Source: Candidatus Sumerlaeales bacterium (GTDB lineage Bacteria; Sumerlaeota; Sumerlaeia; Sumerlaeales; Sumerlaeaceae). Taken from it: a DNA stretch of 19,465 nt. Where the stretch lies: contig JBBSQY010000059.1 of NCBI GenBank assembly GCA_038243585.1, forward strand, positions 1-19,465, written 5' to 3'. A program made the position numbers and the translations under genes. Each line of letters begins with the position of its first letter. Position 1 is the stretch's first letter. Shown one piece after another: positions 125-18,307 of the stretch. Below the pieces are notes generated by a model. That model was not told where the DNA came from and made no database searches. It saw only the letters and a program-made list of their open reading frames with translations.

Positions 125-3100
125 TTACTCGTAGAGTTCCCAACCGGTGTCGACTGCGGTTTCGGGGATTGATACGTCATTAGTCACACGGAACATTGAC
201 TGGCTGCCGAAGGCAGACCGGCCATCAGGATTGGTGACGGTAACGATCCGGGAACCCAGTTCAGCGTCTGGTGCAATTGATATCTGCACTTTCAGCTTTT
301 TCCCGTCGGCGCTGGCCGGCATTACTCTTACAACCGTGATACCGTCGCCAAAGTCTACTGTGGGCATTCCGGCAAAGTACTGGCCGTTGAGTTCCACCAT
401 CAGCGACTGAGCCGGCGCGGCTGCAGGCGGCATAACGGACCGTAGTATTGGTGCTCCCACGGGTCGATAGGTCAGGATATTCGGATTGATAAAGCGGAAG
501 TTCGCCGGATTGGTCATGTTCACCAAGATATTGTTAAACCAACCAACAGCATCTACGCCTTCGCCGCGCTCACGTCCAAGCTGGGCAATGACCATATCCA
601 GATCGCCATCGCGGTCAATATCAGCAAGCTTGATGGCTCTGGCATTACCTGGCACGCTGCGCGATTCGTTTGTATAAGCAAACTGCACTTTAAGAACTGG
701 CAGTTCACCGCGGCTGGACTGAACCGTGTTGCTTGTCAGCAGGTCATTACCGCTGGCGTCCACAAAGAACCCGGGCTGAAGTCCCTCGGACTGCGGCGTT
801 GTGTTCATGTACAGACCAACAGGAATCTTGGCAGCCGGCGCATCGGGTCCCAAAGCCGAATCCGTGGTTTGGGTATCCAGGGCGAGGACGAGATCAATCA
901 AACCATCATTGTTGAGATCGCCTGCGTCGCCGCCATAAGCCGGGAAGTTCGTATTAATTGGGAAACGGTTAGCCGTTTCATTGACGAAAACACCAGCCCC
1001 AATTCCAGATCCGCCACGGTTTGCCAGAAAAGCGTGAGGCAGGCCGATACGACCTGAGGTAATAAACAGATCCATGTTGAGGTCGCGGGTACCGTTACCA
1101 TTGGCGTCAGTGAAGCCGACAATCCCATTGTCGTTCAGGTCCTCCGTCTCTTCGATCAGGAGATAGGAACCGCCGGATGTCTTTGTAGAGTTTCCGTTGA
1201 TATCTTCTCCGGATTCTCCGCGGTTAGTGAAGTCGGCAACGATAACGCCTTCATAGACTCCGGGGAGGTTAATCATAGGCCACACGGCGGGATCGGTCAC
1301 TTCTACAAAGTTATCAGATCCTTGTGTCTTCTGGTTCAGAAGCAGGCGACAGTTGTGGTAGAAATTCGGTGACTGTTCGCCTATGCCCGTGCTGCGGTTT
1401 ACAAATACGAGGTCCAGATCGCCGTCGTTGTCCGCATCAAAAAGCGCGGAATCAACCGTATCGTCGTATTTTGCTGCGCCAAGCCATTGAGCTGAAGCGT
1501 CTACAAAATACCCCCATTCTCCGGCCACGTTTATGTTAATCAGGACCACATTAGGAGCACCGTTGGTGCTGTCGGCGTTGCCAAGTACAATGTCCGGGTG
1601 ACCATCGAGATTAATATCGCCAACGGCTACCGTTCGGGCGTTTGCCTGTTCGGGTGATAGCAATGGAATACGATCCGGAGATTCATAAAAGGCTCCGTCT
1701 CCCGCAGCGTTATCATCCGGTTGAGAATTCAATGGAGTGCCAAATAATGGATCCAGCGTGAAAGCTTCATTATCTTCATCGTTGTTTATGTATAAACGAT
1801 GCTGAAACGGCAGAGTTGGAAAGATTGGATCCGGAACAGCGCCGTTGACGGCATAGAAGATATCAGCAGACCCATCACCATTAAAGTCAACGAATGCGAC
1901 ATCTGCGGCCGTAAATGCGCGGGTTGAGAAGATTGAGAAACCCATTTCAGATTGAACCGCAGGCGCGCCGAAGCTGGATCCAACCGGCGTAAAGACTTTT
2001 TCGCCCTTATTATTTACTCTCTGATTGTTCTTATAAAGAACCTGGAATTCGCCCACTGGATTAAACAATCCGCCGTTTGCAAACGTCAGGTCAAGATCGC
2101 CGTCACTGTTAAAATCGGCCAGAGCCACGCCGAGCGATCCATTGGCGATTCGTCCGTAGGATGGATTTAGAAGCGACGTGAATGTTCCGCTGAGATAAGG
2201 GGCGATAAGGTCAAAGGTCTGATCGATGAACAATGGCAGATCTTGCTGATTTGCTTCTGTGATAACATTTCCAGGAACTGTCGGCCCAATGCCGGCTGTT
2301 CTCAGATTATTCCGGTAAAGAGTCAGGGCCTGCCCTGAATTTCCCGTCACAAAATCGATGTCGCCGTCCAAGTCAAAGTCATCCGCTGCGACTGTACGGG
2401 CAAAGTGCGGAACTTCATTAGTTACATACGGCAGAAGGCTTGCATGTTGAACGGCCCAATTGACCTGCGTTTGACCGGGCCCCACATCGGTGTTCAGGTG
2501 GAGAGCGTTAAAGCCTGGAGGAAGGCCTGTTTGTTCGACACTCGCGGTCACATTAGTGTCATAGGCAACCACCATATCCGGCAGTCCGTCAAGATTGAAG
2601 TCTTCTGTTACAGCAGCGCGAGGTCGTCCAAAGGCTTGCTGGTTGACAAGGTTGACTCTGTATCGGGTGTTCGTATTGTAAGCAAACGGACGCCCAGTAA
2701 TAACTTCTTCCATGTCGTTTCCGGTTAACTGCGAGGAGGGGGCATTGAAGTTGCCTAACATTCCCCGCCGCACTTCCTGCGTGTTTCGGCTATCATCACT
2801 GCCGTGCATGATGCTTGCATCGCCGGCGTTGAAAACCATCATTTCCGGGACCGCAGAATAATCTGTGTCAAAAACGAGCCCAGCTACGGTGTCATCCTTA
2901 ATATTCTCGATCTGGTCGAACTCGGGGGACGCCGTAATATCTCCGGGAATTCCGTCTGGAAGACCCAGCCAAAGTGGTCTGGATACGGTGGTTACCCCGT
3001 TAAACTCACGGGTCGAATAGTATGTTTCTGTACCATAGGTGATGTTGCCAAATACCCCGTCAGCAATGCTATCAAAGTTTACATCAACATTGCTGTAGAC

Positions 3101-6100
3101 CATCTCACTACCGTCCCACTGATTGTTGGGTACAAGGTTGTTCTCCAGATCAAAAACATAGATACTTAAAGCATTGCTTGGTCCCCAGTAGGTCGGTGCC
3201 AATTTTATATCCTGCGTGTTACTGAAATCTATAGATGTCGGAAACACCGGATTAGAATCCCACTCTGGCTTTAGCGGTGGCATGCGATCCTGATCGAATC
3301 CGAACACGCCGTCATTTCCGAGAGTCTCATCACGAAACTTAGTAAGGGTAGTGAAAGTTTCCAACCTATTCATATTGGCGGGCATACGTGTTGTGTTGAT
3401 AAGAACTCGCTCGCTGAACCGGGGGAGAAGATTTCCGGTGGCGGTAGTCACGTTATCCCCGTCAGGGCGAAGAGTTCCGGTTGTCTCGAGATCAAAGAAG
3501 GTATTGGCGTTTCCTATGATGATATCCAGATCGCCGTCCAGATCAATATCTCCGAATTCGGCGGAAGTGGATCGGTCAAATGAGAAAAAGTCATAAGGAA
3601 CCATGGCGCCCGTATTAAGGATTCCCGGATCCCACTCCATTGTGACGTCCACGAAGAATCCGTCTCCAAAACCGTCGGTGTCTGGCGTAGGGTTTTCTAT
3701 CCCATCAACGTCATCGTTCCGGTAGAAGAAATTTTGATAACCTTCTCCAGTGAAACCTGGCGAAGCGAAATTCGTAATAAACATGTCAAGATCGCCGTCG
3801 TTGTCGAAATCAGCCAAGAGGATTTTGGAGCTCGAAACCTGATGATACGGCATACGGTCATCCAATGTGTTGGCGATACCGTCTTTACCGAAGCTCAGGT
3901 CGATGAACTTGCGTCCGCCCTGGGGCTCAAACTCCGTGGGTGCGGCCGGCACGTTCATATACAAGCGGTTCACCGATGCGGCGCCTGATCCGCCCAACTC
4001 CGCGCTGGTGGCCACGGCAAGATCGGGATAGCCATCATTGTCGACATCACCGAAAGTAACACCCAATGCGAACAATGGCGTCACGGGCACGCCGTCTTTA
4101 CGATCAGGTCCCGGTGATGCAGGGGAAATGTCTGTAAATGTCACGAAATCCTGATCGCACGCGTTGCCGATTCCATCTCCGTCGGAGTCGAACTGATCCG
4201 GGTTCGGGATATCTACGCAGTTGTCCAGTATGTTTGGAATACCGTCGTCGTCCCGATCAAAGTTGCCTTCGCAAACGTCGCCAACGCCGTTGCCGTCGGT
4301 GTCGGTCTGGTCAGGGTTTGGAACATTGATGCAGTTGTCCACTCCGTCTAGAATGCCATCGCCGTCGATGTCTCCGTCTACGCCGGGTCCAGGTCCTCCG
4401 CCAGTGCCGATAAGGCCGCCGGGAGCGCCGGTATTCGTGAGAATATCAATTCCGCTGGTAATACTATTTTCATTCACGCGGACTGGAGTGTAGACGTTGG
4501 GATCATCTTCACCGGGTTGAGTACCGGTAAGGAAAGGCACAGGACCATCCCGTCCAGGCTCTTGAAACAGAAAACCGATGTCAGTACTAAAGGTGACGAT
4601 CTCACCAGGTTGCAGCAGGCGCGGATCAAATTGTACTGCGTAGCAGCCATCCGTCAGGCGCATACCGGAGTCGGTCTCATAGTTAAAGAATTTGGGCTGA
4701 GGAAATCCGATCTGGTGCATTTGGAAATAGTTACCAAACTGGAGCTTATCCGGCATGGTTACTCCGGTTAGAGGGTTGTTCAGCGTAGCCAGGCCAGAAT
4801 AGTTTGCGAACTTTCCGGTGCCGAAAGTAAAAGTGTTCGGAATATCCGCGCCGGTTAAAGTGGTCTCATTGGATATTTCGCCTTCGTTCGGAAGAAGGAA
4901 TTTTGTCTGCCCGTCCTGTCCGGTGTAGGTGCGAACGAGGTATCGCAGTCCTGCTTCAAGAGGTTGGGTTGTCACGTTTTGCATACGAACCGTCAGGAGA
5001 AGGTCCGACTGCGGGCCGCTGCTCTGGAAATCGAAGGAACGGTATCTGCCAAGGCGCAACGTCTCTGTTGCAACAACATCATTGTTTATATTAAAGCTTC
5101 CAGCCACAACGTTGTTGAGATCATCCTCGGCGATTACGCTGGAGATAAAGTTGGATGTCTCGGTGTTTATGACATCCTGCGGGAAGCCGTTTTTGACGAC
5201 GCGGTAGGTGATATAAGATTCTGTCGGAGGCGCACTGGTACGCTCCACGAGGGTCGTGGTGGTTGCGGGAAAATGCAGACCAAATTGTCCGGATGGATTG
5301 TAGGTGGCGACCAGGTAATTATCCTGAATCCTGCCGTCGTTCGGCGTGTTCGGATCGGGCACGTTTGTGGATCCCGGCTGTAAAAACGGGACGGAGCCGC
5401 CATAGAATTCCGGCGGAACAGTTGCCGCGTCGGCGAGGAAAAATCCGGTTACTTCATCTACTCCGAAACCAGGCCGGATGTAAACGGCGTAATCATTCGG
5501 CGGAAGATTTGGCCCGTAACCGATATTTAGGTCCTTATCGGAAGCCGGCAGACCAGGCAGAAAGTAACGATTGTCGTTAAACGCATTAGAGTTAATGTTT
5601 CCAATATTGAATTTGGGGCTGTTAAACACTACGCTGGCGAGACGAATTTTTCTGGTAAGGCTTGTGGTTTCGTCAGTACCAAACACGTCATCCGCCAAAT
5701 CATACGGATCATCCGTGGGACGGCCCACGAATACAGGGGTATTCATGACCTCTTCTACCAAAGGCGTTGGATCAGGTATGCCGTCAACAGCGGCACCATT
5801 AATGATTTTGCCTTCGATTGCGCCTTTACCCAGGCGATTGAAAACCTTTTGATATGTCATTTGGAGAGAAATACGATCGTCAAAATCCAGCTCGCGTCCG
5901 AGGAATGGATCTTCCTGTATGACGGGAGCCATAGTTGGATAAATAAGCTGTGAGTGGGTCAGGCTTGCGCAGTGGCCCATTTCGTGGAGTAGAATTGCCT
6001 GAACGTCAAACTGGAAAGCGTAATCGGATCGGCGTTCACCAGGGGGCAGATCATCCACAGCTTCGGGCTGGACCCATTGTATAACAAGGTTGTTAAAAAC

Positions 6101-6865
6101 AATATCGGCATCGAGTATGTCTCCGGCGTCGTACTTGCCCAGCGGCAAAGGTCCAAAAGCAAGGGTATTGGACGTAATGGTAAACTCCTGGCCAGTGGCG
6201 CCAGTCTCAATGTAAGGCGGAAATGTCGTCTGATCTGACAGGTCGATATCACGGTTGAAGTAGGAGAATACCGCTACAGCAAGAGGGCCATCGCCCAGGC
6301 CATCGAAGCCAAGTCCAAATTTTGGGTTAAAGAATATAACGTTGTGCAAATCTACTTCGGCGCCCTCAGGACCTAAAGGACGCTCAGGATTTTGCCCGGC
6401 GAACTGGTCGCTGTAAGTGATTTGTGGGGAGAACTGGAAATTGCTGCCAGCCTCGTTCCAGCCAGTGGGTCCGTCCATATTGTCCCCGGTTACGACTTCC
6501 AGAAGTGCTTGCCGCACCTCGTCGTCGGTCACGGGGCCAAACGATCCGAAGTTCATAAAGGGCGGAATGATTCGCTGGTTAAAATTATTAGTATCAGCCG
6601 GTTCCCGGTAAAGCGTCCAAGACGGTGGACGGAACTGATCCGCCCACTTAATCTTAGTGGCGACAAGTTTATCGTCGGTGGAAGTGTTTGCTCGGGCACC
6701 GGCATCTTCCCTAAGGAAACGGAAGTAGCCTGCTCCGAAGATATTGGGCAAGGTACAGGCTACGGCCAGTACCAGGGTTCCGCGCCGAATTAATCCCGCT
6801 TTAGATACGCTTTTAAATGATTTCATCAAATCCACCTGATTAAGCCGCTGTGTCAAACTTTTCAT
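125..6865 (-). CDS. Giant secreted multidomain protein: matrixin/metzincin-like Zn-peptidase domain, thrombospondin type-3 repeats, FG-GAP/VCBS repeats, C-terminal IPT/TIG-like Ig domain
   Basis: 2246-aa ORF with an N-terminal signal-like segment. [11 protein letters not shown] plus Met-turn PTMAP at nt ~5925-5986. TSP3 repeats ([24 protein letters not shown]) at ~4150-4372. Many GD/AD-x-D/N-x-DG-x-x-D FG-GAP motifs. C-terminal beta-rich domain. The true start may be ATG 6826 (AGGTGG RBS). Confidence 0.9.
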
Positions 6866-7776: not shown

Positions 7777-8457
7777 CTATATATCTTTTTGTCCGAGGTC
7801 GTCAGAAAAACGGTAGACGTTCCCGGCACTTGTTGTTCCGTTGGTGGGGTCGTAGAACCATTTGTTCGTGTTGCGTAAATATGCTGGTTCCACGGGATAT
7901 GTGGAGTTTGCGGCGTTGATCCCCGTGTACTGGTCTGGACCAACGGACAAAAAACAATAGCCACTCAGGCTCATGCCGTTGGCGATGATGGGGTGCTTGC
8001 CAACTCTGCGCAGGGTTAATACCTGAACTGGGTCCCAGTAATCCAGAGCTGTCGAAATGCCGGGTATCCCGTCTGAAATGAGCTGTTGAACCGGCAGATT
8101 AAAGACATCCCGGGGCAGCGATGAGAGATAAGAGAGCGGGGTGGTAATGCCTCGCAATCCGACTCGCGCATCCGGAGCAGCCGGGTCAAAAACTTTTGTA
8201 TCGCCAAGGGGATAAGGAAGTGCGGGTTTGGGCGGGTCACCCTGCCAGTCTCCGTTACGAGTAATCACTTTGTTATTGTCTACGCGATATAGCTCTACGG
8301 CAGTCTGCATGGTTCGCATATCCGCCATGACTCTCGCCACTTTTGCGCGGGTCTGAGCTTCGAGGAAATTAGGCACAGCGATTGCGGCTAATATCGCGAT
8401 GATAGCCACCACGATAAGAAGTTCAATAAGGGTAAAGGCGCGCACTGGATTAATCAC
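7777..8457 (-). CDS. Type II secretion/type IV pilin-like pseudopilin (prepilin N-terminal methylation domain, GspG-like)
   Basis: RA|FTLIELLIVVAIIAILAAIAVPNF class III signal with Glu+5. C-terminal SVGPD...YDPTNG..S.GN motif. GTG 8457 gives a typical short leader (MINPVRA); the ORF track extends to TTG 8499. Confidence 0.9.
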   Translation of the reverse strand: MINPVRAFTLIELLIVVAIIAILAAIAVPNFLEAQTRAKVARVMADMRTMQTAVELYRVDNNKVITRNGDWQGDPPKPALPYPLGDTKVFDPAAPDARVGLRGITTPLSYLSSLPRDVFNLPVQQLISDGIPGISTALDYWDPVQVLTLRRVGKHPIIANGMSLSGYCFLSVGPDQYTGINAANSTYPVEPAYLRNTNKWFYDPTNGTTSAGNVYRFSDDLGQKDI

Positions 8458-8563
8458 AACGGTGCAACCCACGGGTCTGCATAGGGGTTCGTCAAGCAAA
8501 AGCCGTACAAACTCATTTTAATCGATATCATGACTCCCCATTACCTCCCGCCGAGTGCGAGTT

Positions 8564-11157: not shown

Positions 11158-11970
11158 TCAGGTTGAAAGAAATGGTGCAGCCAGTGGCGCCGACAGATTG
11201 AACAGGAGGTGCAGGCTGATGGCGTAGGTGGTGCCCAGCCAGATGCGCACGGCGCCGAGCATGAGGCCCCAGGTGAATGTCTGTGCCAGTTTTGGCCAGG
11301 CGGGATCGAAATGGCCGGCGTGACCGAGGGCGAAAACCAGGGCTGTCACTATGACGGCCAGTATCATGACGGGGCGGGAGCGGCGGCCGCCGATGGCTGA
11401 GAGTCGGGCAACCAGGTAATGGCGAAATAGTAGCTCTTCCTGCCACGGGGCGTTCAGCATGAGCCACGCGACGAGCAGTCCGACTGCCAGATCGGATCCG
11501 CCATCGGTCAATTCTAGAACGGCTTCTCCGGTTTGGATATCGACCAGCAACACCAGCAGCAGACTTATGGCGACGCCGGCTACGGCCATGCCGGCCATCA
11601 GAAGGGATTTAGCCTTCGGGGACCAACCGCCTTCTTTTACCGGAATCCCGCTTTTGACTGCCCACACGTGGCCTGTCGCCCACAGCACCGGCAGCAATAG
11701 GGCGAAAAGAAAATACAGGACGGCCGGACCGGCGAGGAGATTAAAGCCGGCGAAATGATCTGCCGCCAATATCGCCGCGAGCTGCGCCGCTGCCAGGCCA
11801 AGGCCCCACGGGAGGGTTCGAATGATCTGTTGGCGAAACAGGGCTTTGTCGGCGCCGGAGAAAGCTTTTGCCGCACCTTCTGCCAGCGCGAGGCCGCACG
11901 CGCCCCACATTACGCCTGAGTAGACGATGGGACCCCATTGCGAAACGCCGCCATCTAAGAAATTAGTCAT
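11158..11970 (-). CDS. CPBP family intramembrane glutamic endopeptidase (CAAX protease/Abi-like)
   Basis: Hydrophobic 270-aa ORF with EELLFR, FALGH and H-x3-N (SLHLLFN) CPBP motifs. Confidence 0.88.
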   Translation of the reverse strand: MTNFLDGGVSQWGPIVYSGVMWGACGLALAEGAAKAFSGADKALFRQQIIRTLPWGLGLAAAQLAAILAADHFAGFNLLAGPAVLYFLFALLLPVLWATGHVWAVKSGIPVKEGGWSPKAKSLLMAGMAVAGVAISLLLVLLVDIQTGEAVLELTDGGSDLAVGLLVAWLMLNAPWQEELLFRHYLVARLSAIGGRRSRPVMILAVIVTALVFALGHAGHFDPAWPKLAQTFTWGLMLGAVRIWLGTTYAISLHLLFNLSAPLAAPFLST

Positions 11971-13339: not shown

Positions 13340-14146
13340 ATGCTGAACTGTCAATGTGAGAACAAGGAAGAGTGCAACTGCAGCACTGGGGTTGTTTGTC
13401 TGAAGCACGTGACGTTTCACCGGGGCGACAAGGTCATTCTGGACGATATTACGTTCTGTATCGACCAGGGCATTTTCCTGGGGGTTATCGGCCCTAATGG
13501 TGGCGGCAAAACTACGCTGCTCAAGCTGATACTGGGAGTGCTTCCCATGCAGGCGGGCCGCATCGAAATTTTTGGAGAAAGCCTGTCTCACAGCCGCGCA
13601 GCCCGGTCGCGCATTGGTTATGTTTCTCAGCGCAGCGATGTGGATCAGAATTTTCCCGCGAGCGCTCTGGATGTTGTTCTCATGGGGGCGGTTGCAAAGA
13701 CGGGCCTCCTGCGCCGCATCCCGCGCGAGGCGCGGGACCGCGCTATGCATCTATTGGAAACGACGGGTATCGCCGACCTGGCGAGCCGGCCTATCGGTCG
13801 TATGTCGGGCGGTCAGCAGCAGCGGGTGTATATCGCCCGGGCGCTGATTAACGACCCCCGACTCCTGATTTTGGACGAGCCGACCGTTGGTCTGGATTCC
13901 GCCAGCCAGAAACAATTTCTTCAACTGGTGCAGCAGCTGAAAGCGGAGCTGAAACTGACTGTCATTATGGTGAGTCACGATGTGGGTCAGCTTTCCCATT
14001 ACGCCGATCAGATTGCCTGCCTCAACAGGAAGCTTCACTTCCACGACCGCAGCGCGATGCTGACCGACCAGATTATCAGCCATGTGTACACCTGTGAGAT
14101 GGACGCGTATAAGGAACGGGTGAAAGAGATAGCTGGAGCAGGGTAA
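13340..14146 (+). CDS. znuC: Zn/Mn ABC transporter ATP-binding subunit (ZnuC-like)
   Basis: Walker A GPNGGGKTT, IGYVSQ...FP....DVV.MG, signature MSGGQQQRV, Walker B LILDEPTVGLD, and VSHD...IACLN typical of metal ABC ATPases. Confidence 0.85.
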   Translation: MLNCQCENKEECNCSTGVVCLKHVTFHRGDKVILDDITFCIDQGIFLGVIGPNGGGKTTLLKLILGVLPMQAGRIEIFGESLSHSRAARSRIGYVSQRSDVDQNFPASALDVVLMGAVAKTGLLRRIPREARDRAMHLLETTGIADLASRPIGRMSGGQQQRVYIARALINDPRLLILDEPTVGLDSASQKQFLQLVQQLKAELKLTVIMVSHDVGQLSHYADQIACLNRKLHFHDRSAMLTDQIISHVYTCEMDAYKERVKEIAGAG

Positions 14147-14238
14147 TAAGCACCACCGGCTCAATATTGCATAGAAATATAAAAATAAAACGCTATTTGG
14201 TGGTGGTTGAGTTCTCAAGTTTTTATGTGTAAATGACA

Positions 14239-14871
14239 CTATTGATGAGTTCCTAACACAGATGGAATTGGCGGCAATGCACCAAATGTTGATTTGGGTG
14301 AATGCCAAATATTTCCGAGTGATATTAATCCATTAGTTGGATCATAGGGTAATTGAGCACTATTTATGAATGAGTGATCATATTTTTTATCGGGACCCAC
14401 AGACCCTAGCCGCCATTCTCCGTAAAATTGAAAGGCGCTTGGCCAAAACAGGGAATCCGGAACGCGTTCCTTATACACTTGCATAACGTTATAAGAATAC
14501 AGCATTTCGTCGACAGGAGCACCTGAAAGATCCACCATAAACGGATCAATTTTATTGATGGCGGTCAGATAGGCAACTGGGGTTGTAAGAACTTTTGAAA
14601 GAACACCGTTGACTGGCGCGCCTAACATAAGATCAAATTCTGGGTCCAGATAAAATGACGCGTGCGCCATTCGCGGCATTTGATTATGATCTACCGTATA
14701 CGCTACGATCGCACCTGCATATGTGCGAAATTCGGACTTAATTCTACTGGTCTTTGCGTTAACGATCGCGGATTGATAACTTTCCAAGGCGACGCCAGTC
14801 AAAATAATCAATAGAGAAGCGGCTACAAGTAATTCCAAAATAGTAAATCCATTCGATGATGATTGGTTCAC
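14239..14871 (-). CDS. Pseudopilin (prepilin N-terminal methylation domain), second paralog
   Basis: NG|FTILELLVAASLLIILTGVAL class III signal. LTTPVAYL...DPF and SVGPD...YDPTNG..S.GN motifs are shared with the 7777 paralog. GTG start overlaps the upstream TGA (GTGA). Confidence 0.88.
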   Translation of the reverse strand: MNQSSSNGFTILELLVAASLLIILTGVALESYQSAIVNAKTSRIKSEFRTYAGAIVAYTVDHNQMPRMAHASFYLDPEFDLMLGAPVNGVLSKVLTTPVAYLTAINKIDPFMVDLSGAPVDEMLYSYNVMQVYKERVPDSLFWPSAFQFYGEWRLGSVGPDKKYDHSFINSAQLPYDPTNGLISLGNIWHSPKSTFGALPPIPSVLGTHQ

Positions 14872-15767
14872 GTCCCGACCTTTCGAAGATATTTTGCGAT
14901 ATCTGGATCTCTACTTTTACTCCACTCAATTACATCAAAAAAGAATGACTTTGGCAAGAGATCATCATCAGCGCCCGTCAGCTCCACAAAAGGCACAACA
15001 ATAAGGCCAAGCTCAGAATCATTATTAAAAGCTCCGTCTACCTGCAGTTGGCCCATGAGGGTCTTAATGTCAGACGCCTGCGAAGTGAATTCATTTGGAT
15101 CGTACAATGTGATGCATCCAAGCGTATCGCGATGAGACCACTCTACCGTTTCTGTCCCGTGGATAAAACAATCTTTTTTAAAATGGCTGCTATTTACAAC
15201 AATACCAGAAGATGATAATCCAACCGAAACTGCCCCACTAGTTATCACATCAGCCTCGTATAATACTTGCGGTTGTTTCAAATTCAACTTACTGTCTGCT
15301 CGTCCCCATTCTGAAACAAGAAGACCTGAACCTGTATGCATTAGAGTCCTGGCAAGGTGGAAAAAGCCAATAGGAACGCTTTGATAGCCGTATCTATACT
15401 TTCTACCGCTACTTTCAACATAACGTTGCAAAGTCTCAGCGTCCGATATTTCTGGCTTTTGTAAGGCCGTAGTTTCAGATCTACAAAAATATTGTCGACC
15501 AGTCATAGACCATGTATTTCCACTACGCTTATATATAGCCAATATTGAATTTCGAAAAGGGATACCTACATCGAACTCGGAACTGCGTTCCGCCCGACGC
15601 CCAAGCAAAACGATGCTGGTGCATTTGGGAGCCTCGGAAACATTTACGTTTATTTTTAAATGTTTTGACGCTTCAAATTTCGCCACGACTCTTGGCAACA
15701 CTACTGCCATTACCGCCGCGAATACATAAATTAACGCAATAACTTTATGTCGCCTGGAAATTACCAT
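14868..15767 (-). CDS. N-terminally anchored or secreted protein with an L,D-transpeptidase (YkuD/Tlde-like) catalytic motif
   Basis: 299 aa with GAGGT RBS and N-terminal hydrophobic helix. VPIGFFHL and FIHGTETVEWSHRDTLGCITL resemble the YkuD P-x-G-x-F and HG-xn-[ST]-x-GC motifs. The CDS is secure; the function is tentative. Confidence 0.6.
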   Translation of the reverse strand: MVISRRHKVIALIYVFAAVMAVVLPRVVAKFEASKHLKINVNVSEAPKCTSIVLLGRRAERSSEFDVGIPFRNSILAIYKRSGNTWSMTGRQYFCRSETTALQKPEISDAETLQRYVESSGRKYRYGYQSVPIGFFHLARTLMHTGSGLLVSEWGRADSKLNLKQPQVLYEADVITSGAVSVGLSSSGIVVNSSHFKKDCFIHGTETVEWSHRDTLGCITLYDPNEFTSQASDIKTLMGQLQVDGAFNNDSELGLIVVPFVELTGADDDLLPKSFFFDVIEWSKSRDPDIAKYLRKVGT

Positions 15768-15780
15768 TGCACATCAACCT

Positions 15781-16866
15781 CTATTTCACACGAACGGGTA
15801 TAACGCGTGGCATACCGTTCGAGGGATTGACGACAACACCCCCGATTGTTTCACTAATCATATTCAGACTTTCTAAGTTATTAATTTTTACAAAATAATT
15901 GTCCGCTGCATCTACATCCACTATAATATCTTTGCCCACGGCTTTCACAGTCCCGTCCCGATAATTACTTAGAATACGGTGAGATAAAAGGCCGGTTCCG
16001 CGCCGGAATAGAATTTCCGAAGGAAGATTATCGGCCGGGTGACACTCAATTTTAACCTTAGCTGCAGTAACAACAGATTGACTTCCCAAGATGTTTATAT
16101 CGAAATATTCTTTGTCGCCGGACGGGAGCGCGGTTATGCTTAATGTCGCGGTAACTACTTCGTCTGCTTCTAACGAAGTTGGTAGCGAAAAACGAACAAG
16201 ATCAGCCCATGGGGCGGGCACCCTTACCGAAATGTTTTTTAATGGCACAGCCGAATTTTTTAATATGACAGCAACACCTTCTGCTAGGTCTAATAGTCCT
16301 GAATGCGAATCATAGTGCAATTTATATAACGTTTTATCAGTTGAAATAAGCGGAACTATAGAGCCCGTTATGGAAAAATTAAGTACTGTTTCACCGGCAG
16401 AGTTCAGGCCTTCAACCAGTTCAGTAAAGAGCCCCAAAGGCTTGGCCTTCAAACTTACCTTAACATTTATAAGTAGTTCTTCATCTGGCTTCAGATTACA
16501 TGGTGCGAAATCCTGTACTGTAGTACAGCCACAAGAAGTCCTTATTGAATAAATCTGGAATTCATGGTTCGAACTATTTATATAGTTAACCGGCACGATA
16601 ATCGTTGAGTTTTGAGACACTTCGCCAATACTCGCCGACATATTGTTTTTACTCAAAAACTGGGGCTTAACAATAATCTTATCAGGCGCTGTATAGCCTG
16701 GCTTTATCTCGGTAGCAGTTAATAACTGAATTATCATAAGCAATATCAACGATACTACGCCAAATGTTACCGCAATGGGAATAATATTGCGGTTAAATCT
16801 GATAAATTTTAATTTGACGTTCCATTCTTTTTTTGTACCTGTTTGAAGCGATCGATTTTGCTTCAC
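15781..16866 (-). CDS. DUF1573 domain (Ig-like) membrane-anchored protein
   Basis: N-terminal TM helix, then N.S...FQIYSIRTSCGCTT......LKPDEE..I.V (DUF1573 SCGC signature) and further beta-rich sequence. Likely GTG start at 16866 overlaps the upstream TGA; the ORF track extends to 16932. Confidence 0.8.
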   Translation of the reverse strand: MKQNRSLQTGTKKEWNVKLKFIRFNRNIIPIAVTFGVVSLILLMIIQLLTATEIKPGYTAPDKIIVKPQFLSKNNMSASIGEVSQNSTIIVPVNYINSSNHEFQIYSIRTSCGCTTVQDFAPCNLKPDEELLINVKVSLKAKPLGLFTELVEGLNSAGETVLNFSITGSIVPLISTDKTLYKLHYDSHSGLLDLAEGVAVILKNSAVPLKNISVRVPAPWADLVRFSLPTSLEADEVVTATLSITALPSGDKEYFDINILGSQSVVTAAKVKIECHPADNLPSEILFRRGTGLLSHRILSNYRDGTVKAVGKDIIVDVDAADNYFVKINNLESLNMISETIGGVVVNPSNGMPRVIPVRVK

Positions 16867-17786
16867 GTCGACTTCATTTTTTTGAAAACAGACACTCCCA
16901 ATACGAAAACCAATACAAGCGCCCCACCCCACTTCAGGTAGGAAGCACTATTGAAATTTGGACTTGCCTGCCTCTCACGACCTGTTAACGTAGCCACCTG
17001 AGCGTATGGATGAAGCCCCGCTTGCATTTCTTCCGAATATGATTCTGTTGTTCGACTGTCAGGAAAAGCTGTTAAGCTTTTCACCTGAACGTCAAAGGCT
17101 CTAGCCAATTTTATGTCGCCGGTGGGTGTCTGCGAGTAGTATTGAGATTTTAATTTCCGAGGCAGCGTAGGAAATTGCTGATCGAAGTGCGAGCACTGAA
17201 TGCTGAATAGTTTTTGAATGTTGCCATTTATGGTCATCGACATATCTACGTTATGAATTTGCCCATTTACTACCCGCAACATCAGTTCTCGTGAAATAGT
17301 TGGTCCATTGCCACCTTTCCCAGGCACTGTCATTGTAATCAATTCTTCGCCAGGTTTAGAAGAATTTTTATTCATCACCATTTTGGGATTTTGAGCCAGA
17401 AGTTTCGGAACGTAAAAGTAATAATAGGGGCTCATCAGAGAAACATTTAAATCTAGCCCAACATTGAGATAGCCGGTAAACAGTTCATTGCTTCCACCCA
17501 ACCAATATTTCGCGCTATCGCTACTATAATCATATGAAACAAAAGCTTCACCGGAGTCTGTTTCCACTTTAATAAGGATAACTGACTGATGGTAGATGGC
17601 TTTAACACTTGCCTCTATTTCCGTCCTGGGGCTGATTCCAAACATGGGGCTTGATAAAAAGTCTTGGTTAGTCTCGATTGCAATCTTGGACTCCACCACA
17701 ACATCAGGAACGGTTGTAGATACCGTATTGTTTAGCACGAGGTTTCCTTTGGGATCGTAGTGTGCATTGGTTGCCAACTGCCGCAT
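16863..17786 (-). CDS. Hypothetical beta-rich protein with C-terminal transmembrane anchor
   Basis: 307-aa ORF ending KWGGALVLVFVLGVSVFKKMKST. The start is probably GTG 17738 (AAGGA RBS), because ATG 17786 sits in a hairpin loop. Confidence 0.75.
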   Translation of the reverse strand: MRQLATNAHYDPKGNLVLNNTVSTTVPDVVVESKIAIETNQDFLSSPMFGISPRTEIEASVKAIYHQSVILIKVETDSGEAFVSYDYSSDSAKYWLGGSNELFTGYLNVGLDLNVSLMSPYYYFYVPKLLAQNPKMVMNKNSSKPGEELITMTVPGKGGNGPTISRELMLRVVNGQIHNVDMSMTINGNIQKLFSIQCSHFDQQFPTLPRKLKSQYYSQTPTGDIKLARAFDVQVKSLTAFPDSRTTESYSEEMQAGLHPYAQVATLTGRERQASPNFNSASYLKWGGALVLVFVLGVSVFKKMKST

Positions 17787-17805
17787 TTTTAGTTGGCAAC
17801 CAATG
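17765..17805 (-). promoter_or_regulatory. Perfect 15-bp stem-loop directly after the peptide gene (mRNA stabiliser or attenuator)
   Basis: CATTGGTTGCCAACT (17765-17779) and AGTTGGCAACCAATG (17791-17805) are exact reverse complements around an 11-nt loop. No U-tract follows on the minus strand. Confidence 0.75.
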
Positions 17806-17810
17806 TTTGA

Positions 17811-18017
17811 TCATCCTGGGTGACAAAAGCAAGTCATATCGCCTTGCCCATTTGCGTAGGGGCCGACGCACGTCGTCCCGGGGGGACATTTTGATTTACT
17901 ATTGCAGTACCAGATTAATACCCATGCAGCGCCACAAGCATCAGCTACGGGCGCATGCGCAACTAGGTATAGTCCCAGCATTACACAAACGATTGCTCTA
18001 TTAGATTGTCGTTTCAT
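17811..18017 (-). CDS. Small secreted cysteine-rich peptide precursor
   Basis: 68 aa with AGGTG RBS 7 nt upstream. Sec-type signal ends in A-D-A. Predicted 41-aa mature peptide has six Cys. First gene of the co-oriented cassette. Confidence 0.75.
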   Translation of the reverse strand: MKRQSNRAIVCVMLGLYLVAHAPVADACGAAWVLIWYCNSKSKCPPGTTCVGPYANGQGDMTCFCHPG

Positions 18018-18307
18018 TCGTTTTCACCTGCTCTCAGATGAAAGTGTAAACGGGTCAACAGGAACCAAGACTGGCACCAATGTTAGTGCTTAGGCGGTGG
18101 AATCACGAGCAAGTCAACCACAATTTACTTAAACCCTCCATTTTTGAGAGCGGAGAAAAAGGTCGTGGGCAAGGTCCCATAGGTAACCTTTACCATGGCA
18201 AGGCACGAAGGGAAATGGCAAAATACCATATATTAACCTTCTCGTTGACAAGCTGCCCACGGACCCTCCACACCAGCACCAGATTTGGCAGAGGACTAAC
18301 GTTTTTT

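Follow-up and report, generated by a model that had tools for sequence, protein, structure and literature searches.

A probable unannotated gene for a secreted six-cysteine peptide at the head of an inserted cassette in a Candidatus Sumerlaeales bacterium

Contig JBBSQY010000059.1 from Candidatus Sumerlaeales bacterium (GenBank assembly GCA_038243585.1) carries a very short open reading frame (ORF) at positions 17,811 to 18,017 of the minus strand, and raises the question of whether this ORF encodes a protein at all and, if it does, what kind of protein it is. The window that we analysed is this one whole contig (19,465 nucleotides); the genome that contains it amounts to 3.43 Mb and is 89.7% complete. 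The initial annotation had described the product as a defensin/knottin-like, three-disulfide mini-protein. One part of that description stood, as the intrinsic signals of the ORF and its position both point to a small exported protein whose gene had been overlooked and whose six Cys could form three disulfides; the family label did not, as the peptide matched no Pfam family. We consider it very probable that the ORF is a real, unannotated gene for a small secreted mini-protein. The broader reading that we favour, in which the ORF is the first gene of an inserted five-gene accessory envelope cassette and acts through the export and partner mechanism proposed below, has in our estimate a probability, taken as a whole, of about 0.6.

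The ORF itself is exactly as first described, with an ATG start, 68 codons and a TGA stop (17,811-17,813), and with the same mature sequence following Ala-Asp-Ala. Residues 1 to 27 (17,937-18,017, minus strand) resemble a signal peptide, with Lys2, Arg3 and Arg7, an uncharged hydrophobic core, and Ala at positions −3 and −1 of the predicted cleavage site. The predicted mature part of 41 residues (17,814-17,936, minus strand) contains six Cys and ends in C-F-C-H-P-G. The measured gaps between its Cys residues (9, 5, 5, 12 and 1) reproduce the spacing noted before, C-x9-C-x5-C-x5-C-x12-C-x-C, and the WVLIWY and KSK patches are both present. When the Cys in the signal region is included the gaps become 16, 9, 5, 5, 12 and 1, the first spanning the distance from that residue to Cys28. 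Cys thus accounts for 7 of the 68 residues, compared with 0.84% in the long ORFs of the genome. We applied to all ORFs of 45-110 residues, in six frames of the whole genome, a rule-based filter that required a net positive n-region, an uncharged hydrophobic core, small residues at −3 and −1, and at least six Cys after the site. Five of 16,271 passed, the window ORF among them, and the combination of features found in it is more than chance. Two other short ORFs that passed the filter, C13:2239-2500 (+) and C20:24460-24649 (+) of genome G000, seem to encode genuine secreted proteins rich in Ala, Pro and Cys that have no relation to the cassette.

The N-terminus has the features expected of a substrate of the general secretory (Sec) pathway and signal peptidase I, namely a basic n-region, a 13-residue uncharged core, and Ala at −3 and −1 before Cys28. 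The signal peptide was judged with rule-based filters and the cleavage site by the −3/−1 rule alone, with no trained predictor. The presence of a Cys directly after the predicted site, with Asp at −2, raised the question of a lipoprotein. The lipobox pattern excludes Asp at −2, and the head peptide is therefore not expected to be a lipoprotein; lipidation of Cys28 would moreover leave five free Cys, an odd number. A single-sequence AlphaFold2 model of the peptide, with a helix at residues 24-39 and a hairpin at 48-55/61-67, was unreliable (mean predicted local distance difference test (pLDDT) score 58, predicted template modelling (pTM) score 0.30), and no meaningful fold comparison could thus be made.

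Signals for translation were examined next to those for export. A Shine-Dalgarno-like sequence, AGGTGA (18,024-18,029, minus strand), lies 6 nucleotides before the ATG. Its duplex energy is −6.4 kcal/mol; in this genome −6 is reached by 9% of random positions and by 21% of the first ATGs of long ORFs. The third-position guanine-plus-cytosine (GC) content of the ORF (0.42) falls among the values of the cassette genes (0.37-0.44), compared with 0.58 for the genome. With a score based on codon usage in the four genes that follow, the annotated frame ranked first of the six, with a log-likelihood ratio (LLR) of −0.4 against −6.9 to −22.5 in the others, and 1.1% of 180 off-frame windows matched its score. 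The exact peptide sequence is missing from a collection of 15 billion proteins that does hold the neighbouring gene of the same contig, from which we conclude that gene callers skipped the ORF; the earlier remark that an ORF so short is easily missed by annotation pipelines thus holds here. No Pfam or NCBIfam family was matched by the peptide, tblastn against all the loci that we fetched returned nothing real, and the best score in the ESM language-model atlas, 0.83, was at noise level. As no search returned a sequence relative, homology cannot support the gene. A gene can be supported without a homologue by its position in a recurrent cassette, by ribosome-binding sites and by composition, as this case shows.

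From about 14.1 to 18.3 kb of the window the GC content is 41-44%, compared with 55-60% on both flanks. This region (14,147-18,307, with no strand assigned) lies between a gene for an ATP-binding cassette (ABC) ATPase, which ends at 14,146, and a gene for a tetratricopeptide repeat (TPR) protein, which starts at about 18,308. Two genomes of the same family, G011 and G003, have the gene order mnmA-ABC-TPR, and only about 150 nucleotides separate ABC from TPR in them. Because the two genes adjoin there and are 4.16 kb apart in the window, the gene string between them is an insertion; no border repeats were found at it. The inserted region holds five genes, all on the minus strand, with the peptide gene at their head, followed by genes for proteins of 307 residues, 383 residues (DUF1573), 299 residues and 210 residues.

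The cassette recurs. Of the 73 genomes that represent the class, 12 carry the family of the 299-residue protein, in 18 copies that include the window's, and a close relative of the 210-residue protein adjoins it in 18 of 18 copies. In a species-representative collection the 210-residue family was found at 20 loci, of which 19 are titled Candidatus Sumerlaeota, Sumerlaeia or Sumerlaeaceae and one only "bacterium". Identity to the window copies is 46-55% for the 210-residue, pseudopilin-like protein and 22-30% for the 299-residue protein; conservation declines along the cassette, and the upstream genes are mostly unrecognisable between cassettes. In all eight cassettes for which GC was determined, it lies 2-12 points below that of the remaining locus. 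The cassette is most likely an accessory element specific to Sumerlaeota. The main genome survey of Sumerlaeota makes no mention of pili, pilin, transpeptidase, cysteine, horizontal gene transfer or bacteriocin, and none of the publications found to join Sumerlaeota and pilin is, judged by title and abstract, about such a cassette.

Position at the head of this cassette provided a criterion that could be applied to its other copies. Sixteen of the 18 cassettes were evaluable, two with less than 100 nucleotides of upstream DNA being left out. A filter set beforehand required an ATG or GTG start, a signal-like N-terminus, three or more Cys and no more than 100 residues in the mature part. It fired at 8 of 16 cassette heads, or 7 of 15 without the window, and at two further places in the roughly 66 kb that were scanned. 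A less strict inspection added four heads, those of L021 (13 Cys), L037 (8 Cys), L038/L049 (7 Cys) and L040 (8 Cys, no canonical start codon). By the two approaches together, an analogous head ORF is present in 11 of the 15 other evaluable cassettes. The background of the filter in the window's genome is 0.0095 firings per kb of strand; of 1,930 proxy genes, 12 (0.6%) begin with an ORF of this kind before them. A Shine-Dalgarno site with a duplex energy of −6.4 kcal/mol or lower precedes 10 of the 11 head peptides that have a start codon, the exception being that of G050. Six of 10 head peptides are found in public protein sets with identical start and stop, as singleton clusters, two of them under the name 'hypothetical protein'. 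The mature Cys count is even in 9 of 11, and in 9 of the 12 cassettes with a head peptide the next gene encodes a protein with a C-terminal transmembrane (TM) helix and a basic tail.

One pair of head peptides, those of L041 and L042, proved homologous (E 4e-27; z 16), the sole such pair in the set, and their anchored neighbours are homologous as well (35% identity). By eye, the window peptide had seemed to resemble the peptides of L041, L042 and L049, which likewise show CPPxT, clustered Trp residues, a Cys where the signal would be cleaved and a terminal C-x12-C-x-C. This likeness was rejected after global alignment against 2,000 shuffles, in which z was 0.0-0.6 compared with 16 for the control pair; BLAST also found nothing. 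Two of the loci deserve separate mention. In L039 (G068:C12) the anchored protein is tandemly duplicated (oriented positions 3,932-4,909 and 5,322-6,398; 56% identity), with a head peptide detected only before the second copy. In L040 (G069:C158), at about 4,665-5,051 of the plus strand, no ATG, GTG or TTG precedes the hydrophobic, signal-like stretch of the eight-Cys frame, which may have an unusual start codon or a frameshift, or may belong to a decaying gene.

The four genes that follow the peptide gene were then characterized. The first encodes the 307-residue variable protein (16,863-17,786, minus strand), which lies in frame with the peptide ORF, has a C-terminal TM helix followed by KKMKST, and possesses no signal peptide. 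An alternative GTG start at 17,738 yields a form of 291 residues, the version held in the public collection. Among its counterparts, the 307-residue protein is remotely similar only to that of G001 (E 1.5e-4).

The DUF1573 protein of 383 residues (15,781-16,932, minus strand) has an N-terminal TM segment and scores 32.8 bits against PF07610 (cut-off 26.1); its true start is probably downstream of 16,932. Related proteins are encoded in three other cassettes (L022, 1,266-1,952; L021, 5,767-6,999; L038, 4,310-5,434). The counterparts from G014 and G050 reach 36.8 and 40.8 bits and that of G001 15.9, below the cut-off, so that three of the four pass Pfam. A CxC pair, C134 and C136 (SCGCT in the window), is invariant in all four cassette homologs and supplies two of just nine invariant columns; across the four proteins the motif reads SCGCT, SCNCI, ECGCT and SCSCT. 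Pairs of selenocysteine and Cys mark redox-active cysteines. Selenoproteins of the DUF1573 family (PF07610) in which this motif reads UGC appear in the tables of two selenoprotein reviews. Because such selenoproteins are listed and the corresponding CxC is invariant here, the DUF1573 protein is a possible redox helper; the listing suggests that its CxC is a redox-active site in an Ig-like exported domain, and we infer that the protein could oxidise or isomerise the disulfides of the head peptide.

The 299-residue protein (14,868-15,767, minus strand) begins with a TM helix, and its His203 and Cys218 form an invariant pair. Its family profile gave no sequence match in the PDB; fold comparison alone succeeded, and revealed the fold of the YkuD L,D-transpeptidases with a catalytic-type His and Cys. 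The last gene encodes the 210-residue pseudopilin-like protein (14,239-14,871, minus strand), with a prepilin-type N-terminus and a conserved C-terminal domain. With the profile of its family, matches were obtained to the N-terminal helices of GspG and of type IV pilins (best E 9.8e-12). Against Pfam N_methyl the window copy scores 19.8, just under the cut-off of 21.2, and the G001 copy 26.5. The C-terminal domain matches nothing in these profile searches. A second pilin-like gene of the window, at 7,777-8,499 of the minus strand and outside the cassette, has the C-terminal GPD...YDPTNG..S.GN that is also seen in the 210-residue protein, and this shared motif suggests that both belong to a larger pseudopilin family of Sumerlaeota whose C-terminal domain is uncharacterised.

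Taken together with the head ORF, these genes suggest the following course of events. The peptide would be translated from its own Shine-Dalgarno site, and the 27-residue signal peptide would route it through the Sec pathway and be cut off after Ala-Asp-Ala. The 41-residue product would then fold in the periplasm or at the cell surface, its six Cys forming three disulfides, possibly with the aid of the membrane-anchored DUF1573 protein, whose CxC is probably redox-active. Outside the cytoplasm, the peptide might act as a cassette-specific, fast-evolving partner of the equally variable neighbour protein, while a conserved chassis, consisting of the YkuD-fold Cys/His enzyme and the pseudopilin-like protein, could carry out wall attachment or display and export. 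That the peptide works with the other proteins of the cassette is, in our view, somewhat probable. As for the purpose, our best guess is a polymorphic surface-recognition or antagonism module, and a role of the peptide in recognition or antagonism is to be taken as tentative. A still bolder proposal, which we regard as doubtful, is that the peptide is one allele of an undescribed polymorphic system of Sumerlaeota, carried on a mobile low-GC cassette, in which the chassis serves a hypervariable pair devoted to recognition or antagonism, some of the alleles having a cis-defensin framework. One member of the pair would be a disulfide-rich mini-protein exported through Sec, the other a protein anchored at its C-terminus that diverges along with it, and the chassis, sometimes together with a CxC DUF1573 redox protein, would mature, display or wall-link the two. 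If true, this system would be the first to tie bacterial defensin-like peptides to a dedicated genetic system.

A number of results count against the reading that we favour. Per codon, the codon-usage LLR of the peptide ORF is about 0, compared with 0.13-0.17 in the long genes of the cassette. A scan for sigma-70-like promoters gave no match upstream of the ORF and did not yield more sites than were obtained with shuffles, and no RNA sequencing runs with this locus are listed. The peptide has no paralog in its own genome, neither one with a conserved signal and a variable core, as the initial annotation had suggested looking for, nor any other. No word-sharing proteins of 37-119 residues were found for the peptide among 5.8 billion clusters, and the six-frame translations of 60 relatives gave noise only (best E 0.004), with matches that contained internal stops or lay inside large unrelated ORFs. 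An exhaustive HMMER search of 1.84 billion representatives produced five matches, all to long repeat proteins (NHL, Calx-beta or unnamed). With no homologue found, neither conservation of the Cys frame nor purifying selection is demonstrable. Within the set of cassettes, no head peptide was found in four evaluable ones (L019, L020, L036 and L043), and the similarity of the window peptide to each of the other head peptides stays within what shuffles give (z at most 1.4), so that the class is defined by position and composition alone. The head filters were shaped after the window had been seen, and the relatives are kin rather than independent samples. Finally, because the 307-residue protein is without a signal peptide, a direct partnership outside the cytoplasm is doubtful in this cassette if that protein is cytoplasmic. 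Wider scans added four loci from genome collections and 16 from metagenomes; these held the pilin gene alone or lay on contigs that were too short, and with no evaluable new head among them they gave no independent test set for the head-peptide rule.

The five HMMER matches were rejected as relatives, since each arose from weak repeat matches that had been summed and the Cys frame was absent from all. Two of the proteins, P0001 and P0004, are large unannotated metagenomic proteins without a Pfam match that contain many repeats around K-C-P-x-G-T-D-L-E-G-V-F-A-M-G-D-G-D-L; they surfaced solely through summed weak matches to the C-terminal half of the peptide.

Would the peptide then be an antimicrobial, one of the activities that the initial annotation had considered, next to those of an enzyme inhibitor and a signal? 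According to this explanation it would be a cis-defensin-like or bacteriocin-like molecule, a Sec-exported peptide with three disulfides, and the adjacent variable membrane protein would confer immunity or act as a receptor. We regard this as unlikely. Knottins are characterised by disulfides I-IV, II-V and III-VI that form a knot; their loop lengths do not seem to fit the Cys spacing of the window peptide, which is a lead rather than a test. In the CS-alpha-beta fold two disulfides pin a helix to a beta-hairpin. The Cys framework of this fold is C...CX3C...C...CX1C according to the abstract of PMC5234102. PMC11561630 describes a screen with CX(2,18)CX(3)CX(2,12)CX(4,17)CXC for cis-defensins among signal-bearing proteins of 30-130 residues, with the further criteria, assessed by Phobius, of a predicted signal peptide and no TM region. 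The length of the window peptide, 68 residues, falls within this precursor range. Its sequence fails the pattern because it has no C-x3-C. The head peptides of L041 and L042 do match, compared with a background of 2 in 16,738 short ORFs, which favours the antimicrobial explanation and keeps the defensin idea alive for the class, not for the window peptide. A C-terminal C-x-C, which the window peptide does have, is found in 4 of the 11 head peptides and in 95 of the 16,738 background ORFs. The peptide and its neighbour are also hypervariable and diverge together, and the cassette is patchy, multi-copy and inserted, as is typical of antagonism loci.

On the other side, the window peptide shows no similarity to the two peptides that pass the pattern (z 0.5-0.6). 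Pfam, which includes models for defensins, knottins and epidermal growth factor (EGF) domains, gave no match for it. At E values up to 10 no family, whether defensin, knottin or bacteriocin, was returned for any of the 11 head peptides, a limit at which the HMMER filters drop most matches above about 0.1. The mature part has a net charge of only about +1 and is thus not a typical cationic antimicrobial peptide; the peptide of L042 is acidic. The neighbours are bitopic proteins of 260-450 residues, unlike the typical small immunity proteins, and for the sole class II bacterial defensin that was assayed in PMC11561630 that paper reports no antimicrobial activity. With no Pfam match, a failed Cys pattern and an unreliable fold model, membership of the window peptide in the defensins or knottins is not supported.

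A different explanation takes its start from the junction with the next gene. The peptide ORF and the 307-residue ORF share one frame, with one TGA and eight codons between them, and could be two parts of one longer gene, either a pseudogene with a nonsense mutation or a gene in which UGA is read through with the help of a hairpin. Such a hairpin exists. A perfect inverted repeat, 100% complementary, forms a 15-bp stem with an 11-nucleotide loop (17,765-17,805, minus strand; arms 17,765-17,779 and 17,791-17,805), with a folding energy of −28.6 kcal/mol (z −3.7). It begins 6 nucleotides after the TGA, and its loop contains the ATG (17,786) of the next ORF. The fused gene would also explain why the 307-residue protein has no signal peptide, compared with 9 of 10 counterparts in other cassettes that clearly have one and one that is unclear. 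Alternatively, the 307-residue gene may be decaying or rearranged. As the sole DNA run that contains the locus has an identical contig and is probably the source of the assembly, it provides no independent check of the TGA.

Several points speak against a single gene. A Cys-rich N-terminal module is present in none of the other anchored proteins. The head peptides of the other cassettes are in mixed frames relative to the next gene, 2 of 10 being in frame as chance predicts (prior one in three), they end in TGA, TAA or TAG, and in 7 of 10 cassettes the two genes overlap when the second is taken at its longest. From the mixed frames and the signal peptides that the next genes possess themselves, we conclude that head peptides are separate genes. 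Strong hairpins after the stop were found at four of the 11 head peptides, the window's included, and those of G005a, G062a and G069c precede genes that have signal peptides of their own. Recoding of the TGA as selenocysteine was rejected, as there was no match to SelA, none to SelB or SelD above the cut-off, no tRNA-Sec among 42 tRNAs, and in Rfam neither a family nor a selenocysteine insertion sequence (SECIS) for the hairpin; in a genome 89.7% complete, the absence of this machinery is not proven. We consider the fusion rather improbable. The hairpin could be an element of translational coupling or of mRNA stability. A predicted complex of the mature peptide with residues 1-275 of the 307-residue protein scored 0.01, a value that, without controls, gives no verdict.

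It is quite improbable that the ORF is a chance open frame without a protein product, situated in the roughly 520-nucleotide divergent intergenic or leader region between the cassette and the TPR gene. This would agree with its being an orphan in every search and called by no gene caller, and with the noise-level atlas score, the low-confidence fold model and the codon LLR near zero. It would leave to coincidence a combination of features seen in 5 of 16,271 ORFs, a well-spaced Shine-Dalgarno site, the best score of six frames and an analogous ORF at the same place in 11 of 15 other cassettes, compared with 0.6% of control genes. That the ORF is a regulatory upstream ORF, in which terminating ribosomes melt the hairpin that sequesters the next ATG and so gate the downstream gene, the peptide being incidental, is very improbable, since, despite a stop 6 nucleotides before the stem and an ATG in the loop with a weak Shine-Dalgarno site (−2.2 kcal/mol), 68 codons with a signal peptide and six Cys are far more elaborate than a leader peptide needs, 7 of 10 other head genes overlap the longest frame of the next gene, and a strong hairpin follows 4 of 11 only. 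Translational coupling and a functional peptide can coexist.

Outside the cassette, the window contains a gene for a CPBP/Rce1-like intramembrane protease (11,158-11,970, minus strand) with sub-threshold matches to the myxosortase-type models MrtJ and MrtP. Near it lies the gene for a protein of 2,246 residues with FG-GAP and thrombospondin-type-3 repeats (125-6,865, minus strand), which has sub-threshold MYXO-CTERM-related matches and a C-terminus without a TM anchor.

Bacterial annotation tends to overlook small secreted proteins that are rich in disulfides, and homology searches do not reveal those of uncultured phyla. Should the head peptides act as effectors or recognition ligands, they would constitute a pool of very diverse natural mini-protein scaffolds. 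Among known systems, the bacterial cis-defensins (classes I-V in PMC11561630) resemble the window peptide in having a short precursor with a predicted signal and a Cys-rich mature part that is expected to form three or four disulfides and ends in C-x-C. The window peptide differs in being barely cationic and in having no C-x3-C, profile match or reliable fold. The 74 peptides published in that paper come in their majority from Proteobacteria, with one from Acidobacteria and one from Actinobacteria, and the term 'gene cluster' does not appear in it.

The cassette also has a likeness to operons for bacteriocins such as enterocin P and lactococcin 972. These bacteriocins depend on an ordinary Sec signal, have no double-glycine leader, and are accompanied by adjacent immunity genes. 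In both cases a small gene for a Sec-type pre-peptide comes first and membrane proteins follow. No sequence relation between the two came to light, though none was tested for. The cassette differs in having no dedicated ABC exporter and in that it encodes, beside the peptide, large bitopic proteins, a YkuD-fold enzyme and a pseudopilin; its host is an uncultured member of a Sumerlaeota-type class. Verru_Chthon-type pseudopilin cassettes (TIGR02596) of the Planctomycetes-Verrucomicrobia-Chlamydiae (PVC) group are likewise multi-copy and encode prepilin-type N-termini, and the second pilin-like gene at 7,777-8,499 weakly matches Verru_Chthon cassette protein D (E 1.2e-5, below the cut-off). The 210-residue protein, by contrast, matches no Verru_Chthon model, and those cassettes are not known to include a DUF1573 protein, a YkuD-fold partner or a head peptide rich in Cys.

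A further parallel is provided by the YkuD L,D-transpeptidases (Ldts) and their small substrate. In E. coli, Ldts attach the 58-residue Braun lipoprotein to peptidoglycan and DpaA releases it. The 299-residue protein matches these enzymes in structure, and here too a YkuD-fold Cys/His enzyme is encoded beside a small exported protein. The head peptide differs from the Braun lipoprotein in being hypervariable, in having no conserved C-terminal Lys and, judging from the Asp at −2, in probably not being a lipoprotein, and the idea that it is a substrate of the YkuD-fold enzyme is pure conjecture. If the enzyme does act on the head peptides or on their anchored partners, wall linkage of the L,D-transpeptidase type would extend to a new phylum and to new substrates.

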